7,264 bases of DNA from a virus (Duplodnaviria > Heunggongvirae > Uroviricota > Caudoviricetes), in IMG/VR virus record IMGVR_UViG_2565956631_000003, positions 1-7,264 of that record. One strand, given 5' to 3'. A program made the position numbers and the translations under genes. This document shows, one piece after another, positions 199-6,689 of this stretch. How positions within the stretch are numbered: the stretch's first letter is position 1; every line of letters starts with the position of its first letter. Below the pieces are notes generated by a model. The model searched no databases. It was not told where the DNA came from and was given only the letters and a program-made list of their open reading frames with translations.

Positions 199-639
199 TC
201 ATGCTGCCCTGTCTCCCCATCTTGCTTTCCACTCCAGAGCTAGTCGCGCTTCATCTGACCACTTAACTCCACGCTCTGTACCGAATGCCTGTATAAGCTC
301 TAATAGCTCCGCAAATTCGCTTACACACATCCTGCTGGTTGACTTGCCTATTACCACAAAGCCATTCCCGGCAAGGTTAGGAACAACATCCTGCTGCTTT
401 AATGCTGCGGTAAACACACACTTCCAGCTTTCTGCATCCAGCCAGCGACCATGCCATTCAACCTGACGAGAGACGTCACCAAGGCAAGCCCAAAGCTTTC
501 GGTTTTGGTCTAAGCTGCGGTTGCGTTCCTGAATGGTTACTACGATTGGTTTGATTGGGTCTGGAAGGATTTGCTGGATAGCTTGAATGGCGTTCTGCTG
601 ATGAATGGGGCTTCTTAGTTCAAACGTTCGTTTCCTCAT
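199..639 (-). CDS. ninB: NinB recombination protein (lambda NinB/Orf family)
   Basis: 146-aa [59 protein letters not shown]..., matching my recollection of lambda NinB almost along its full length. AGGTGA Shine-Dalgarno before ATG 639..637. Position downstream of the replication genes is as in lambda/P22. Confidence 0.88.
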
Positions 640-874
640 GGCTCACCTTCTGCACGCATGGATTAATTAACGCCAAAATAGCTTCTGGTTTCTCAATAAC
701 ATCGAACCGCTCACCACTTGCCATTCTTACAATCGTAAATCCGGCATCAAATAGGGTTTCGATGTTGTCAGAGTTAACGTACAAGGGCTCATATGCACTT
801 CTGGTGCTTTCTATCACGCCTGTGCTTGGTGGCTGATAGATGCTGCATTGCATGGTTAATTTTATAAATGGCAT
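620..874 (-). CDS. Hypothetical 84-aa protein, unrecognised
   Basis: ORF with ATG at 874..872 preceded by AAGGAG at 9-nt spacing. Its 3' end overlaps the ninB start by 20 nt, and it lies 5 nt downstream of the preceding gene, so it is operon-packed. No family recognised by eye. Confidence 0.6.
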   Translation of the reverse strand: MPFIKLTMQCSIYQPPSTGVIESTRSAYEPLYVNSDNIETLFDAGFTIVRMASGERFDVIEKPEAILALINPCVQKVSHEETNV

Positions 875-1498: not shown

Positions 1499-2935
1499 TC
1501 AGAATCCTCCTTTCTTCTTGGACTGCGGTTCCTCGCGTTCACGGCGGCGCATTTCAGCAGACTGTTGGTCTGTGTCATAAATAGCGCCATTTGCCTGTAT
1601 GCAATACACCGTGCCGGTATTGCCATGGCGATTGAGGCGAAGGATTAGTTCGGTTTCACCAGGAGGAACGCTGTCATCAAAAGCACCTTCACGATGGATC
1701 CCCACCCAATAATCGCAATCCTGTTCAATCTGCCCTGTATCTCGTGAGTCACTTGGTAATGGGCGTTTATTGGTTCGGCTTTCCAGTGCGCGGTTAAGCT
1801 GTGTCAGAAGCACAACAACACAATCAAGCTCTTTGGCAAGGTTCTTCAGTCCTTTGGTGATCATGCCGTAAGCAAGGTCGTTGCGATCGGCCTTCTCAGC
1901 GGTCATTAGTGTCAGGTAATCGACCAGAATCATGCCAACACATCCTTTTTCTCGCTTGATTCGACGACTTTCGCTGACGATTTGAGCCAGAGATAATCCC
2001 GGCGTGTCGTCGATGTAAAGCAGGTCGATTTCACTCAAGCGATTGGCTGTTTCGATCGCCCTGTTGAAGTCACCATCGTAATCACCCTGATAGCCGTCAT
2101 CGGCGTCATTTGTCGCCGGAAGGTAAAATATATTCGGGTTAACACCAGACTTCTGCCCTACCAGTTTTTCCAGTATCTGGTCACCTGGCATTTCAAGGCT
2201 GAACATCAGAGCTGGCTTTTTCTCATGCACTGCGCAGTTGATTGCCATCTGGCTGTATAGCGTCGTTTTCCCCATCTTAGGGCGAGCGCCAATGACAAAC
2301 AGAGAGCCTTTAACCAGACCTTTCGGTGACAGCATCCTGTCCAGCGATGGGATCCCTGTGCTCATTCCTCGTTGTTCGCCTGACGGGTCAAATCGCTTCT
2401 CAAGGTCGCTAACCCAGTCTTCCATGACCTCACCAAATGAGCGAAGGCCGCGACGCGATCCGGTTTTTGCATGGTCTGTCAGTTGCGTGAAAATCGCCTG
2501 AATAGCTTCGTACTTCTGCGTTGCAGTCATTCCGTTGCGGGAATAGAGCAATTCCGTCGCTTCAGTCATGCGGTTGATGGCGTAGCGTTCCATTGCGGTT
2601 TCACGAACCTGCATTGCATAGGCAACGATGTTTGCTGCGCTTGGCGTGTTCTTTGCGATCTCAGCGATATAAGCAAAACCGCCAACAGACGCCGTTAACG
2701 ATTTACGCTCCAGTTCATCGAAAAGCGTCAGGCCATCTACTGGCTTTTGCTCACGGTGCATTCTGGTTATTTCTTCGAAAAGGATTTTGTGTGGTCGACT
2801 GTAAAATGAATCAGGCTTCAGCATCGCCAGGACTTTCTGGACGCGCTCACTGCTGTCATCATCCAGAAGCAATCCACCAATCACCGCCTGCTCTGCCTCG
2901 ATGCTATGGGGCGGCGCATAAAAATTATCGGTCAT
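1499..2935 (-). CDS. Replicative DNA helicase, DnaB family (P22 gene 12-like)
   Basis: DnaB-like N-terminal region (SIEAEQAVIGGLLLD), Walker A GARPKMGKTT, and a RecA-like C-terminal core. Start taken as ATG 2935..2933 (MTDNFYAPP...) with GAGGG 9 nt upstream; the ORF track's 2950 start is an upstream in-frame GTG. The start overlaps the stop of the upstream initiator gene (ATGACCGATAA). Confidence 0.9.
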   Translation of the reverse strand: MTDNFYAPPHSIEAEQAVIGGLLLDDDSSERVQKVLAMLKPDSFYSRPHKILFEEITRMHREQKPVDGLTLFDELERKSLTASVGGFAYIAEIAKNTPSAANIVAYAMQVRETAMERYAINRMTEATELLYSRNGMTATQKYEAIQAIFTQLTDHAKTGSRRGLRSFGEVMEDWVSDLEKRFDPSGEQRGMSTGIPSLDRMLSPKGLVKGSLFVIGARPKMGKTTLYSQMAINCAVHEKKPALMFSLEMPGDQILEKLVGQKSGVNPNIFYLPATNDADDGYQGDYDGDFNRAIETANRLSEIDLLYIDDTPGLSLAQIVSESRRIKREKGCVGMILVDYLTLMTAEKADRNDLAYGMITKGLKNLAKELDCVVVLLTQLNRALESRTNKRPLPSDSRDTGQIEQDCDYWVGIHREGAFDDSVPPGETELILRLNRHGNTGTVYCIQANGAIYDTDQQSAEMRRREREEPQSKKKGGF

Positions 2936-3824
2936 CGTGTTCACCCTCACGAACTTTCAGGTAGGTATTATCGTTAAGCAGGAAATCAAATCCCTTTTTG
3001 TGCCAGACGGTTCCGCGTTGATGGTTTAGGCGCTCTTCGAACATCCATCGGCAATTTTCGCCTACGTAGCTCAAATAATTTCTCCAGTCCTGCATCGTGA
3101 ACCCATGCCCGTCAAGCTGGCGTGTTATCACTCCGGCTTTTCGCCAGAACGTTCGGATCTGGTTTTTACGCTTGTCATTCAGTGCGCGGATTTTTGGCGC
3201 TTCAGGAAGGATTTCGTGGTAAGCATCGACAACATCCTGACAGCTAACGGAAGGTTTTTTCTTGTCAGACTTTTTGTCTGCTGCGGTACTCTCTAATACG
3301 TCAGTATTAGAGATAATATTATTATATTCTTTATCTGTGGTAATTTGCTGGTAATCTGCTGGTACAGTATTGCTTGCAGGCATTGGTATTGCTGGCTTTG
3401 AGGTGGTAATTTGCTGGTAATCTGCTGGTACAAAATTTGACTGATAATCGTCATATTTCTCTACCGAGAAAACTGAGAATTTACCGTGTGAAACCCAGTC
3501 AATCATGCCGAGCTTTTTGAACTTTCTAAGCAGGTACTGAACGCGATCTGGTTTGAGTCCTGTTTCAAACGCCAGAGAGTTTCTACCGCCAAGTAGCTTC
3601 CCTCTGCCTACCAGAATTTCTCCTGCGTCAGTCATTACATACTCAGGCGTATGCTTTGCTTTGAGGATTAAGTGAACCCACAGATGCGCAGCTTCTGCGT
3701 CCTTGTAAAACGGCACATCCATAATTTTACGGTGCAGCAAGGCATACCCCTTACCGCTGCTTTGATGCGGTTGTTGTAGCCTTCTGGCCTCTCTGGCTTC
3801 GGCTAGATTAGATATGTTACTCAT
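2925..3824 (-). CDS. Phage replication initiator (lambda O / P22 gp18 functional analogue) containing the origin
   Basis: 299-aa ORF immediately upstream of, and coupled to, the helicase. N-terminal region looks like a winged-helix DNA-binding domain. A central duplicated peptide [10 protein letters not shown] is encoded by the iteron DNA. Family assignment is by position and architecture, not a confirmed match. Confidence 0.75.
3305..3431. repeat. Replication origin-like iteron array with flanking AT-rich tract, inside the initiator gene
   Basis: Two perfect 30-bp copies of GTGGTAATTTGCTGGTAATCTGCTGGTACA at 3336-3365 and 3402-3431. Each holds two sub-iterons of about 11 bp (GGTAAT[T/C]TGCTGG), with degenerate copies between (GGTATTGCTGG at 3384-3394). 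Adjacent AT-rich stretch at 3305-3335 (ATTAGAGATAATATTATTATATTCTTTATC) lies downstream in the gene's direction, as in lambda ori. Confidence 0.65.
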
Positions 3825-3963
3825 GACCTTTCTCCTTCTGCATCAGCTTCACTTTTTCCAACTCAGCCCGGAATCGACCAGGCTGCTTGAAGCTGGACAG
3901 GAAGCGATCACGTAGTATGTGTTTGTGAATTTTGTCCTGGTAAGGACTGAGTTGTTTTGTCAT
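3817..3963 (-). CDS. Small 48-aa basic ORF between cII and the initiator gene
   Basis: ATG at 3963..3961 preceded by GGAG at 5 nt. Translation [48 protein letters not shown]. Its TAA stop overlaps the initiator start (ATGAGTAA), suggesting translational coupling. Absent from the ORF track, presumably because it is short. Confidence 0.35.
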
Positions 3964-3973
3964 AATTACTCCT

Positions 3974-4049
3974 GTGGATTGATCCAGTAATTCCCTCAGA
4001 ATTGCATATCAATTTGCTTAAAATCCTCGGTGGCGGCCGGGGATTTTTT
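3974..4049 (+). ncRNA. oop: oop-like antisense RNA overlapping the 3' end of cII
   Basis: -10 CATAAT at 3961-3966 with a weak -35 TGGTAA at 3938-3943. Plus-strand intrinsic terminator at 4025-4049: CCUCGG-UGGCGG-CCGGGG stem-loop followed by AUUUUUU. Predicted transcript of about 76 nt. GAUCCAGUAAU...CCUCAGAA resembles my recollection of lambda oop RNA. Confidence 0.55.
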
Positions 4050-4292
4050 CTTTGTGATTTCATCAAGCGCATACTTAAAAGCCCTGCTAATCGGACTGAT
4101 GTCTGATGCCATTCCGAAAGCACACAAGACCGAAGCAATAAATCTCCAGTCCGTTCTGCTTATCTTCGATTCATGACAGCCAATCATCTTTGCCAGACCG
4201 CGCTGGGTAAGCGTTGACAGGTTGATTAGTAAATCAGTTTCAGCGCGATCAATTTCTCGCTGTGTTGGCTTGCTGTAGCTTGCTTGTGCCAT
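3996..4292 (-). CDS. cII: CII-like transcriptional activator
   Basis: 98-aa ORF whose C-terminus ...[18 protein letters not shown] is close to my recollection of lambda CII (...TNKKRPAATERSEQIQMEF). Helix-turn-helix segment ...SKISR.... Sits between cro and the replication genes. AGGAAA Shine-Dalgarno upstream of ATG 4292..4290. Confidence 0.85.
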
Positions 4293-4407: not shown

Positions 4408-4593
4408 TTATGCCGCTTGGCGGTAAGCACTTTCTTGATACTTCAGGGCGCCAGCTGTAACGATTTCCAATCGATAGGCGTCTTTCTCTGGGATAACTTC
4501 TTTCCACTGAGAGACTGCTGCATCGCTAATGCCTAGTGCTTTAGCAACAGCACGCTGGGTTCCGAAGTGGTCAATAACATCTTTTTTGTACAT
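4408..4593 (-). CDS. cro: Cro repressor (P22 Cro-like, 61 aa)
   Basis: MYKKDVIDHFGTQRAVAKALGISDAAVSQWKEVIPEKDAYRLEIVTAGALKYQESAYRQAA matches my recollection of P22 Cro. GGAG Shine-Dalgarno 7 nt upstream. Divergent from the repressor gene across the operator region. Confidence 0.9.
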   Translation of the reverse strand: MYKKDVIDHFGTQRAVAKALGISDAAVSQWKEVIPEKDAYRLEIVTAGALKYQESAYRQAA

Positions 4594-4673: not shown

Positions 4674-5324
4674 ATGAATACACAACTGATGGGTGAGCGT
4701 ATTCGCGCTCGCAGAAAAGAACTCAAGATTAGGCAGGCTGCCCTTGGAAAGATGGTTGGCGTGTCTAATGTTGCTATTTCCCAATGGGAGCGATCTGAAA
4801 CTGAGCCCAATGGCGAAAACCTATTGGCCTTAGCCAAGGCTTTGCAGTGCTCCCCTGATTACCTGTTGAAAGGAGAGGATAGTCTTTCAAACATTGCCTA
4901 TCACAGCAGGCATGATCCAAGAGGTTCGTATCCTCTAATTAGTTGGGTAAGCGCAGGATGTTGGATGGAAGCTGTAGAGCCATATCATAGGCGTGCAATA
5001 GATAACTGGTACGACACAACGGTAGATTGTTCTGAAGACTCTTTTTGGCTCGACGTTAAAGGCGATTCAATGACTGCCCCGGCAGGACTGAGTATTCCTG
5101 AGGGGATGATTATTCTCGTCGACCCAGAAGTCGAACCACGTAATGGAAAGCTGGTAGTCGCCAAACTTGAAGGAGAAAACGAGGCGACATTCAAAAAGTT
5201 AGTTATTGATGCCGGTAGAAAATTCCTGAAACCACTCAATCCACAATACCCAATGATTGAAATCAATGGGAACTGTAAAATCATTGGCGTTGTCGTTGAT
5301 GCCAAGCTAGCAAACCTTCCTTAA
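4674..5324 (+). CDS. c2: Prophage repressor, P22 c2-type (HTH plus S24 LexA-like autopeptidase domain)
   Basis: 216-aa ORF MNTQLMGERIRARRKELKIRQAALGKMVGVSNVAISQWERSE... with an N-terminal helix-turn-helix, an Ala-Gly cleavage site (VSAG-CW), a catalytic Ser in GDSM and a downstream Lys. Near-full-length match to my recollection of the P22 c2 repressor. Confidence 0.92.
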   Translation: MNTQLMGERIRARRKELKIRQAALGKMVGVSNVAISQWERSETEPNGENLLALAKALQCSPDYLLKGEDSLSNIAYHSRHDPRGSYPLISWVSAGCWMEAVEPYHRRAIDNWYDTTVDCSEDSFWLDVKGDSMTAPAGLSIPEGMIILVDPEVEPRNGKLVVAKLEGENEATFKKLVIDAGRKFLKPLNPQYPMIEINGNCKIIGVVVDAKLANLP

Positions 5325-5528: not shown

Positions 5529-5638
5529 CCAGAACTTGAGTGGTTTTGGGGATGGCGCGAATTGCAGCTGCAAGACAGCGATCGAGAAGATAAGCACCTC
5601 GACGCGTCATGCGCCAAAGCCACTTAAAGGAGACCATC

Positions 5639-5944
5639 ATGGTAACCATTGTCTGGAAAGAATCCAAAGGTACGGCAAAAAGCCGCTACAAAGCTCGCAG
5701 AGCAGAACTTATTGCCGAGCGACGCAGTAATGAAGCACTGGCGCGAAAAATTGCTCTAAAGCTCTCTGGTTGCGTCAGAGCAGACAAAGCAGCATCACTC
5801 GGAAGCATTTGCTGCAAGAAGAAAGAAGAAGTCGTTCGAAAAAATAGAAGTATTTATTACAAGGATTCAAACCCATTAGGAAACAAAATACATGCAGTCC
5901 AAAAAATAAAATTGTACAGTAAACTACCGTACGGTGCTTATTGA
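5639..5944 (+). CDS. N: N-type transcription antiterminator (phi21-like arginine-rich motif)
   Basis: AAGGAG at 5627-5632, 6 nt before ATG 5639. N-terminal MVTIVWKESKGTAKSRYKARRAELIAERR is the arginine-rich boxB-binding motif I recall for phage 21 N. First gene after nutL. The in-frame ATG at 5609 lacks a Shine-Dalgarno. The 3' third of the gene is markedly AT-rich. Confidence 0.8.
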   Translation: MVTIVWKESKGTAKSRYKARRAELIAERRSNEALARKIALKLSGCVRADKAASLGSICCKKKEEVVRKNRSIYYKDSNPLGNKIHAVQKIKLYSKLPYGAY

Positions 5945-5946
5945 GT

Positions 5947-6285
5947 ATGCTTATGGTGAAAAAGACTATTTATGTTAATCCTGACCGCGGACAAAACAGA
6001 AAAGTATCTGATAGAGGTCTTACATCTCGAGACAGGAGGAGAATAGCGAGATGGGAAAAGAGGATAGCATATGCATTAAAAAACGGTGTAACACCTGGAT
6101 TTAATGCTATAGATGACGGTCCTGAATATAAGATTAATGAAGACCCAATGGATAAAGTTGACAAAGCATTAGCAACACCATTTCCTCGCGATGTCGAAAA
6201 AATTGAAGATGAAAAATATGAGGATGTAATGCACAGAGTTGTTAATCACGCTCACCAACGAAATCCAAATAAAAAATGGTCATAG
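5947..6285 (+). CDS. Hypothetical 113-aa protein in an AT-rich segment immediately after N
   Basis: ORF begins at the N stop (TTG 5941, ATG 5947 or 5953; no clear Shine-Dalgarno, so the start is uncertain). Arg-rich N-terminal half (RGQNRKVSDRGLTSRDRRRIARWEKR) and acidic C-terminal half (EDPMDKVDK...EKIEDEKYED). AT-rich codon usage unlike the flanking genes. No family recognised. Confidence 0.5.
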   Translation: MLMVKKTIYVNPDRGQNRKVSDRGLTSRDRRRIARWEKRIAYALKNGVTPGFNAIDDGPEYKINEDPMDKVDKALATPFPRDVEKIEDEKYEDVMHRVVNHAHQRNPNKKWS

Positions 6286-6418: not shown

Positions 6419-6505
6419 ATGGAAGAAGAATTTGAAGAGTTCGAAGAGCATCCTCAGGATGTGATGGAACAATACCAGGACTATCCGTATGACTACGACT
6501 ATTGA
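6419..6505 (+). CDS. 28-aa highly acidic, aromatic-rich micro-ORF overlapping the ral start
   Basis: GAGGTGA Shine-Dalgarno 6 nt before ATG 6419. Translation MEEEFEEFEEHPQDVMEQYQDYPYDYDY. The TGA at 6503-6505 overlaps the ral ATG (6489) by 17 nt. Confidence 0.4.
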   Translation: MEEEFEEFEEHPQDVMEQYQDYPYDYDY

Positions 6506-6689
6506 TAAAAATCAATGGTGTGGACAATTCAAGCGATGCAATGGATGCAAGCTGCAATCGGAATGCATGGTTAAGCCTGAAGAAATGTTTCCTGTAATGG
6601 AAGATGGGAAATATGTCGATAAATGGGCAATACGAACGACGGCAATGATTGCCAGAGAACTTGGTAAACAGAACAACAAGGCTGCCTGA
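6489..6689 (+). CDS. ral: Ral antirestriction protein (lambda Ral-like, 66 aa)
   Basis: MTTTIDKNQWCGQFKRCNGCKLQSECMVKPEEMFPVMEDGKYVDKWAIRTTAMIARELGKQNNKAA matches my recollection of lambda Ral. Four Cys (C-x5-C-x2-C-x5-C). Early-left operon position downstream of N. Confidence 0.7.
   Translation: MTTTIDKNQWCGQFKRCNGCKLQSECMVKPEEMFPVMEDGKYVDKWAIRTTAMIARELGKQNNKAA

Follow-up and report, generated by a model that had tools for sequence, protein, structure and literature searches.

orf48 (DUF2740), a conserved 48-codon cistron ahead of the O-like replication initiator in a mosaic lambdoid phage

The locus described here raises the question of what a 48-codon reading frame represents when it lies between cII and the replication initiator of a lambdoid phage, opposite the promoter of the oop antisense RNA. 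An earlier note on this DNA had singled out the frame as an unannotated basic ORF with a GGAG Shine–Dalgarno and a stop codon overlapping the start of the initiator, and had offered two readings of it, a real micro-protein or simply a coupling leader for the initiator. These elements are all present in the window (by which we mean the whole 7,264-nt stretch of viral DNA that was analyzed; Table 1). The frame runs from ATG to TAA on the minus strand and encodes a basic peptide (12 Lys/Arg against 6 Asp/Glu), with 5 nt separating the end of the GGAG from the ATG. Its TAA (3819–3817) falls 5 nt beyond the initiator ATG (3824–3822), such that the two genes share 8 nt. Between the cII stop (3996) and the O start (3824) lie 171 nt, in keeping with the gap of about 170 bp given in that note; the accompanying figure of about 36 bp for lambda requires amendment, given that in lambda 32 nt separate the end of cII (38653) from the start of O (38686).

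A catalogued gene in a mosaic early region

The frame is the long-known lambdoid/P22 gene orf48 (Pfam DUF2740), and is not new. Its peptide matches DUF2740 (PF10872) at E=8.9e-29 (99.4 bits against a cut-off of 27, spanning profile positions 1–43 of 43) and PHROG_1913 at E=2.7e-28, and displays the traits of the family, namely a size of ~46–48 aa and the conserved core HK(N/H)ILRDR; an NCBIfam scan of the same peptide returned no match. Bases 3700–4100 are 100% identical to phage HK022, in which record U02466.1 labels the CDS “orf48 gene product; sequence well conserved in phage P22” and AF069308.1 names it HK022_53. The gene is called orf48 in P22 and hkaW in HK620 and HK630, and “DUF2740 family protein” is the name assigned by PGAP in 400 of 5,426 complete E. 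coli genomes. P22, HK022, and HK620 match the window in family and position, and the curated P22 record does so in initiator overlap and pO placement too; the peptide of the window is identical to that of HK022 and 85% identical to that of P22, with no material difference. The term “unannotated” can therefore not be kept as a mark of novelty; it is true only of some records, and is probably explained by those that omit the gene, such as RefSeq NC_002166.1 (in which none of cI, cro, cII, or orf48 is annotated).

The family is a narrow one. When 1.8 billion representative proteins were searched with a profile HMM, the true matches fell into only about five clusters, each of them from Enterobacterales, and no domain fusion of informative value emerged; in phage records the orf48 family is found 127 times, as compared with 97 for the HK97 gp53 type discussed below. 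Three candidates from these searches were rejected, one of them (P0059) because the apparent fusion protein is a cII–orf48 read-through artefact, and the others (P0061 and P0063) because they are repetitive matches. Two coincidences of name were likewise set aside: “orf48: gnarl1” in PMC12373910 is a library index number and does not denote this gene (the DUF2740 motif is absent from the supplements), and the “ORF48” of PMC6456863 belongs to an unrelated series of prophage ORF numbers. The literature searched contained no mention of DUF2740 and no assignment of function to orf48, nor any data on its translation (ribosome footprints, peptides) or phenotype.

The surrounding genes show that the window is a mosaic lambdoid (pro)phage in which an HK022-type cII–orf48–O–P block is combined with P22-like cI and cro; we read it as such because no single phage record covers more than 75% of it (the best match is to mEp235, at 98.5%), because cI and cro are of P22 type, and because the cII–orf48–O–P block is HK022-like. 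The initiator, annotated as O in HK022, matches PHROG_345 (“replication initiation O-like”) at E=4.7e-88 and contains repeats at 3337–3371 and 3403–3437.

Table 1. Features of the window, with strand and the basis on which each was placed.
Feature	Position	Strand	Basis
ninB	199–639	−	ORF list and Pfam
DnaB-type replicative helicase, phage-encoded (“P” of HK022)	1499..2950	−	Pfam DnaB, DnaB_C
O-like replication initiator, 299 aa, HK022 type, with origin iterons	2925..3824	−	PHROG_345
orf48 / DUF2740 CDS, 48 aa	3817..3963	−	ORF list, Pfam, U02466.1 annotation, pooled dN/dS
orf48 stop / initiator start overlap, ATGAGTAA	3817..3824	−	Sequence
Candidate mRNA helix, 3′ arm, GGUCAUGAGUA, includes initiator AUG	3818..3828	−	Fold prediction
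Initiator's own Shine–Dalgarno, AAGGAG, in orf48 codons 43–44	3832..3837	−	Direct sequence reading
Local mRNA hairpin (predicted), CAGCCUGG/CCGGGCUG, codons 27–34 (nt 79–100)	3864..3885	−	Fold, alignment
Candidate mRNA helix, 5′ arm, UACUACGUGAUC, orf48 codons 16–20	3906..3917	−	Minimum-free-energy fold
oop promoter pO: −35 TGGTAA 3938–3943, 17-bp spacer, −10 CATAAT 3961–3966	3938..3966	+	P22 homology
orf48 Shine–Dalgarno, GGAG, within conserved lambdoid junction block	3969..3972	−	Sequence
oop antisense RNA, ~80 nt	3974..4053	+	Terminator scan, fold, lambda and HK97 homology
cII	3996..4292	−	Pfam Phage_CII, E=2.7e-33
cro	4408–4593	−	ORF list and Pfam; P22 type
cI	4674–5324	+	ORF list and Pfam; P22 type

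Coding constraint on orf48 and the predicted peptide

A random frame of 48 codons is open with a probability of (61/64)^48, or ~0.10, so that openness alone does not take orf48 beyond chance; it is the comparative data that mark the ORF as real. Homologous loci were drawn from annotated phages, from one genome per species, from viral contigs, and from the contigs carrying the most divergent members. Between them, these sources supplied 19 different alleles at the DNA level (from E. coli, Salmonella, Klebsiella, Citrobacter, Enterobacter, Pluralibacter, Atlantibacter, Pseudescherichia, and Erwinia), which are mutually related, so that counts across them are not independent; the 80 viral loci are confined to the best matches, with a single peptide encoded throughout. 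We observe no frame disruption in 17–19 distinct alleles, down to 58% amino-acid identity (in an Erwinia phage), and indels among the alleles comprise whole codons only. Pairwise dN/dS values (Nei–Gojobori) range from 0.10 to 0.69, mostly 0.15–0.45, with dS reaching ~1.8. For the 12 ungapped alleles taken together, the orf48 frame has a pooled dN/dS of 0.33; four of the other frames give 0.98–1.27, and the remaining one, the antisense frame with which orf48 shares wobble positions, gives 0.49. Each of the five other frames holds 18–46 stops, where the orf48 frame holds none. The earlier note had named frame disruption, or a lack of codon-level conservation in relatives, as grounds for abandoning the ORF, and what the alleles present is the reverse of both.

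The distribution of change along the gene is uneven. Minimum substitutions by codon position are 15/11/34 across codons 13–39, a clear third-position excess, which is absent from codons 1–12 (14/8/11) and codons 40–48 (7/9/10). Such a pattern fits second jobs for the two ends: the first ~10 codons double as oop promoter DNA on the other strand, and the last six hold the Shine–Dalgarno and ATG of the initiator (conservation at the C-terminus being partly explained by the AAGGAG embedded there). Between them, the central 27 codons are conserved as protein. Across 17 proteins, 21 of the 48 residues are invariant, with Lys14, Arg18, Asp19, Arg20, Gly29, Arg30, Phe31, Arg32, Ala33, Glu34, Leu35, Glu36, and Lys37 unchanged throughout the 17-sequence alignment. 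Any constraint on synonymous sites would lower dS, and the true dN/dS would then be lower still. Judged by these comparisons, orf48 reads as a conserved protein-coding cistron under purifying selection.

The peptide is predicted to be a basic two-helix element, joined at an invariant QPGR turn; the AlphaFold model (built with the 17-sequence alignment) places helices at residues 7–23 and 28–44, with a mean pLDDT of 80 and a pTM of 0.38. Comparison with the PDB by Foldseek, and with BFVD, gave no usable match, and known helical-hairpin folds (Rop-like RNA binders, helicase-loader hairpins) showed no significant structural match to it. A sequence profile search of the PDB returned nothing below E=0.5, and neither Lambda_CIII nor any other Pfam family besides DUF2740 was matched at E<0.01; genuine CIII genes are located elsewhere in related loci.

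The oop junction and the replication module

The placement of pO in the window rests on homology and on P22 annotation: it maps onto the “promoter oop” of the P22 record BK000583 (32346–32374), covers the first 26 nt of orf48, and has as its −10 (CATAAT) the complement of the orf48 ATG together with the three bases upstream. Its absence from the promoter scan list is accounted for by the scan itself, as pO has 8 of 12 consensus matches and the threshold was 9. The RNA that would issue from it is predicted to fold into two hairpins (−30.4 kcal/mol, z = −4.1) and meets an intrinsic terminator at 4020–4047, within the 3′ end of cII (terminator scan); at E≤1, Rfam returned for the window only a spurious snoRNA match and no oop family. 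Taken with the P22 correspondence, these features indicate that the window carries a lambdoid oop/pO antisense unit opposite the 5′ end of orf48. In print, OOP has been described as spanning −90 to −10 relative to the ATG, the junction as holding a 33-bp conserved block, and orf48 as absent from lambda (Hayes et al, 2012).

Comparison with lambda informs on what is specific to the present locus. The lambda cII–oop–pO–O junction is alike in possessing the ~33-bp block with the oop 5′ end, the CATAAT over the start codon and the GGAG, and in having its oop terminator within the 3′ end of cII; it differs in that the lambda junction runs directly into O, whereas in the window a separate 48-codon cistron is interposed, and in that the partners of lambda O are the P loader and host DnaB, whereas the module of the window encodes its own helicase. 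The junction block, ...CAGGAGTAATTATG, is common to lambda O, HK97 gp53, and P22 orf48. The earlier statement that the ORF lies opposite the oop promoter is borne out by the layout of the curated P22 record. The suggestion that its translation would converge with oop transcription is contradicted by the direction of pO, which fires away from the ORF and into the 3′ end of cII; the converging transcription is that of pR against pO across oop, exactly as in lambda. Nor is the arrangement a trait peculiar to this ORF, since what follows this conserved junction is O in lambda, gp53 in HK97, and, in one locus of our set (L102), a ParB-like gene. The complementarity of OOP to the mRNA reaches to within 2 nt of the orf48 Shine–Dalgarno, and OOP could on that account damp translation of orf48 and the initiator too. 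The same OOP-to-Shine–Dalgarno geometry is found for lambda O.

At every locus examined, orf48 overlaps the O-like initiator. The arrangement is GGTCATGAGTAA in 98 of 99 loci, giving the overlap ATGAGTAA, and ATGGATAA in the one variant; at locus L184, the overlap is 4 nt. Wherever the gene after the initiator was readable, it encodes a phage helicase, be it of the DnaB type (HK022), the P22 gp12 type, or a 626-aa primase-helicase. Two loci separate orf48 from its upstream neighbors, through insertion of the ParB-like gene between cII and orf48 in L102, and of a 249-aa gene at the same point in L186. In both, orf48 is still fused to the initiator, and the block comprising Shine–Dalgarno, ATG, and pO −10 remains with cII, where it now heads the inserted gene; no pO −10 is found opposite the orf48 start of either locus. 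Because orf48 stays with the initiator in these two cases, and not with cII/oop, we assign it on gene order to the replication module rather than to the cII–oop unit; its position opposite pO is a consequence of the module-junction site. The DUF2740 motif was found in none of the 80 loci encoding a lambda-P-type loader, a narrow test in that all 80 are close relatives of lambda.

The partners of orf48 within the module vary more than the peptide does. One and the same 48-aa peptide is encoded ahead of two initiator classes between which BLAST detects no similarity, in 33 loci an HK022-type initiator with a DnaB-type helicase and in 40 loci a gp18-like 286-aa initiator with a primase-helicase, and the identical peptide also stands beside several divergent cII alleles. 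Between the window and P22, where orf48 retains its 85% identity, cII and P22 C1 give no alignment, and O matches gp18 at 23% identity over the C-terminal 150 aa only; orf48 is thus more conserved than its neighbors. The pairing of one peptide with unlike initiators argues against a partner surface specific to one initiator, and its partner is probably something common to these modules, be it nucleic acid, the SF4 helicase fold that they share, or a host factor for replication or stability. The alternative to which the distribution also points is a generic cis role for orf48.

The slot between cII and O can also hold an ORF of a different kind. In HK97, ES18, ST104, and several Stx2 phages, it is occupied by a 53-aa ORF of the HK97 gp53 type, which is like orf48 in slot, in its Shine–Dalgarno/ATG junction, in being basic, and in overlapping the initiator start, and which is likewise followed by an initiator of gp18-like type and a DnaB-type helicase. 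Similarity between gp53 and orf48 does not extend past residue 11, and the stretch concerned is encoded by pO DNA common to both; homology of the two was accordingly rejected, the matching residues reflecting that promoter DNA, and gp53 is a positional analogue of orf48 and not a homologue. The HK97 initiator is 51% identical to P22 gp18, yet is preceded by gp53. Lambda replicates without orf48. As HK97-type modules carry an unrelated 53-aa ORF in its place, and lambda has no such gene, orf48 is not a universal cofactor of these initiators.

Proposed coupling to the initiator and rival explanations

Retention of the overlap at all loci examined suggests an arrangement suited to translational coupling of orf48 and the initiator, and we looked to the predicted mRNA structure for a means by which this could operate. 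In the minimum-free-energy fold (z = −2.7), nt 47–58 of orf48 pair with GGUCAUGAGUA, which contains the initiator AUG. The 7-bp core of this helix was recovered independently by RNAalifold and is intact in 16–18 of 18 alleles; in 11 of 15 alleles the Arg18 codon is the predicted pairing partner of the AUG (probability 0.58–1.0), and that codon is CGT in 19 of 19 alleles, against five different codons for Arg30. Occlusion of the initiation site was compared with that in synonymous-codon permutations; in 8 of 15 alleles, no more than 0.1 of the permutations equaled or exceeded the natural sequence, which is only a modest excess. Other pairings replace the coupling helix in three loci (L006, L102, and L186), and the alleles contain no compensatory changes in it, as both arms are nearly invariant. 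A local hairpin at nt 79–100 is also predicted, with 89.6% of cells paired across alleles and no variation at the four-fold sites of Pro28, Gly29, and Ala33 within it. From these models, structure-gated coupling of the initiator to orf48 is plausible. The arrangement resembles coupled overlapping cistrons of the ATGA/TAATG type, both in a stop 5 nt past the downstream AUG and in a downstream AUG predicted to pair with the upstream coding sequence; it would differ from them in that the initiator has a strong Shine–Dalgarno of its own, by reason of which coupling may be unneeded.

The reading that we consider likely is that orf48 is a real small gene of the DUF2740 family and the first cistron of the replication module, with translation coupled to that of the initiator and a peptide directed at a common target. 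Transcribed from pR after cII, the order would be orf48, O-like initiator, phage-encoded helicase, with orf48 translated off the pR transcript at about the level of the initiator or higher. Ribosomes that end at the orf48 stop, 5 nt beyond the initiator AUG, would reinitiate there or unmask the AUG; translation of orf48 would in this way both supply ribosomes to the initiator start and open the pairing between codons 16–20 and the AUG, amounting to translational coupling. The peptide for its part would act on a target common to different replication modules, as its distribution suggests. Of the two readings originally offered, the leader draws support from an overlap retained at every locus examined, and what falls away is the exclusive choice between leader and micro-protein; this dichotomy is probably false, because the data are compatible with both roles together.

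Were orf48 purely a coupling leader, the act of translation alone would matter (through ribosome delivery and unmasking) and the peptide would be functionless. The invariance of the stop–start overlap, the predicted pairing of the initiator AUG inside orf48, and the presence of the unrelated gp53-type ORF in the same slot, also overlapping O in 97 phage records, would all follow from such a role; a leader, though, needs no particular residues, and this is hard to square with a dN/dS of ~0.3, the third-position excess of the core, 21 invariant residues in 48, and 85% peptide identity between phages whose cII proteins cannot be aligned and whose initiators are weakly similar, such that we regard the pure leader as quite unlikely. 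A chance open frame in the spacer, its conservation derived from DNA/RNA signals or from recent recombination at the module junction, is a still more distant prospect and in our view very improbable. About one in ten random frames of this length is open, both ends overlap DNA/RNA signals and lack third-position excess, several four-fold sites are invariant, and near-identical copies occur in different mosaics; against this stand a frame open in every allele where the other five accumulate 18–46 stops, the 15/11/34 codon-position pattern of the core, and the consideration that RNA constraint lowers dS, making the real dN/dS even lower.

A role in the lysis–lysogeny decision is suggested by location, since orf48 adjoins cII and oop in most phages, pO lies over its first 26 nt, OOP complementarity extends to 2 nt from its Shine–Dalgarno, and a small basic helical peptide is predicted; CIII offers a precedent in that it acts on CII stability through FtsH. 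On such a scheme, the peptide would stabilize or antagonize CII or modulate OOP–cII mRNA pairing, or the orf48 start would compete with pO/OOP. We give this little credence, in that orf48 parts from cII/oop and stays with O where insertions intervene (L102, L186), lambda has the same pO/oop geometry without orf48, no match to Lambda_CIII or another characterized family was obtained, and the identical peptide sits beside several divergent cII alleles. That orf48 encodes a tail protein, as the PHROG_1913 label and the product names copied from it into RefSeq phage records (P22 included) would have it, is barely credible: the product is only 48 aa long; its gene is always located in the early-right operon, flanked by cII and the initiator, and at no locus in a structural module; the podovirus P22 and the siphovirus HK022, whose tails are unrelated, both carry it; and nothing was found to support the label. 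Since position in the early operon contradicts it throughout, the label is almost certainly an annotation error, and its spread through RefSeq merits correction.

Within the preferred reading of a coupled small gene with a common-target peptide, a more specific proposal can be framed, which we put forward as possible but doubtful: DUF2740 would be a dual-coded element of lambdoid modules that bring their own SF4 helicase, in which an mRNA switch between the Arg18 region and the AUG gates the initiator and the peptide serves as a generic host/helicase factor, for example (under the same doubtful proposal) by neutralizing host DnaB/DnaC or a protease. A potential parallel for the peptide is ORF104 of Staphylococcus phage 77, a small protein that Hood and Berger reportedly described in 2016 as binding the host helicase loader DnaI. 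It would be alike in its size of ~50 aa, in its location beside replication genes, and in belonging to a phage with a helicase-loading function of its own; no relationship to orf48 was found in sequence or in fold, and we treat the analogy as a lead only.

As a discovery, the ORF is of small value, the gene having been in GenBank since the 1990s and having a Pfam family of its own. It is nevertheless among the few genes without an assigned function in the best-studied phage regulatory region, and is conserved at 85% between phages whose cII proteins cannot be aligned. The dual-coded proposal, if true, would explain both the association of one peptide with unlike initiators and its absence from the lambda O–P module, which borrows host DnaB. 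The strict linkage of orf48 to helicase-followed initiators, together with a non-homologous occupant of the same slot in gp53, makes for a concrete and cheaply testable hypothesis of what a small gene at the head of a lambdoid replication module may contribute.

A mosaic window and its genes

The window is a mosaic in which P22-type cI and cro are joined to an HK022-type block of cII, orf48 (the 48-codon DUF2740 gene between cII and the O-like initiator), O and P. No single phage record matches more than 75% of its length, and the best phage-record match is to mEp235 (98.5%). Within the initiator gene, each of two 35-nt direct repeats contains an internal GGTAAT(T/C)TGCT repeat, and the pair presumably comprises the origin iterons.

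Features in the window and in related loci (L095, HK97; L102 and L186, loci with a gene inserted between cII and orf48)
Feature	Sequence	Position	Strand	Description
84-aa ORF	window	620-874	-	between ninB and helicase region
Direct repeats	window	3337-3371, 3403-3437		two, near-identical, 35 nt (GTGGTAATTTGCTGGTAATCTGCTGGTACA...); inside initiator gene
Predicted local mRNA hairpin	window	3864-3885	-	CAGCCUGG/CCGGGCUG
N-like ORF	window	5609-5944	+	arginine-rich stretch GTAKSRYKARRAELIAERR; weak, sub-threshold Pfam N_peptide match
Nun-like ORF	window	5941-6285	+	arginine-rich stretch RDRRRIARWEKRI; directly after N-like ORF
Ral	window	6489-6689		downstream of N-like/Nun-like pair
HK97 gp53	L095	721-882		small basic ORF, 53 aa; between oop and gp18-like initiator
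Inserted gene	L102	2707-3504		265 aa, ParB-like HTH; between cII and orf48
Inserted gene	L186	2755-3504		249 aa, no assigned function; between cII and orf48

The tandem N-like and Nun-like genes (5609-6285) form an unusual arrangement; we take the arginine-rich stretch of the second to be similar to HK022 Nun, and Nun is annotated in the matched region of the related phage mEp235. We also observe that the 84-aa ORF matches Pfam FlbD just below threshold (23.9 bits versus 24.7), an odd resemblance for a nin-region gene.

Annotation and predicted local structure of orf48

The PHROG_1913 label for the orf48/DUF2740 family (window 3817-3963) is “tail protein”, a name repeated in RefSeq phage records that include P22 (NC_002371.2), SE1, ST160, mEp043 and Erwinia phage Midgardsormr38; this is almost certainly an annotation error, because the position of orf48 is invariably within the early replication operon. 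The RefSeq HK022 record (NC_002166.1) carries only 36 features and is missing cI, cro, cII and orf48, all of which are annotated in GenBank U02466.1 and AF069308.1.

The hairpin predicted within the orf48 message covers the most conserved codons of the gene (Q27-E34) and is retained in 15-17 of the 18 alleles (distinct DNA versions from related loci). Within it, the P28, G29 and A33 codons show no variation at their four-fold sites, a pattern that may or may not stem from selection on the RNA.

Alternative occupants of the cII–initiator slot

In both loci with an inserted gene, it is this gene, not orf48, that is headed by the conserved oop/pO/SD block (oop 5′ end, pO −10, Shine-Dalgarno and ATG), and the orf48 start overlaps the stop of the inserted gene as ATGA. 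HK97 gp53, of a type present in 97 phage records, is not homologous to orf48, yet it fills the corresponding slot, with oop on one side and an initiator resembling P22 gp18 on the other; it starts at the same conserved SD/ATG junction and likewise overlaps the initiator start. Own-helicase lambdoid modules therefore come in two flavours, carrying either orf48 or gp53.
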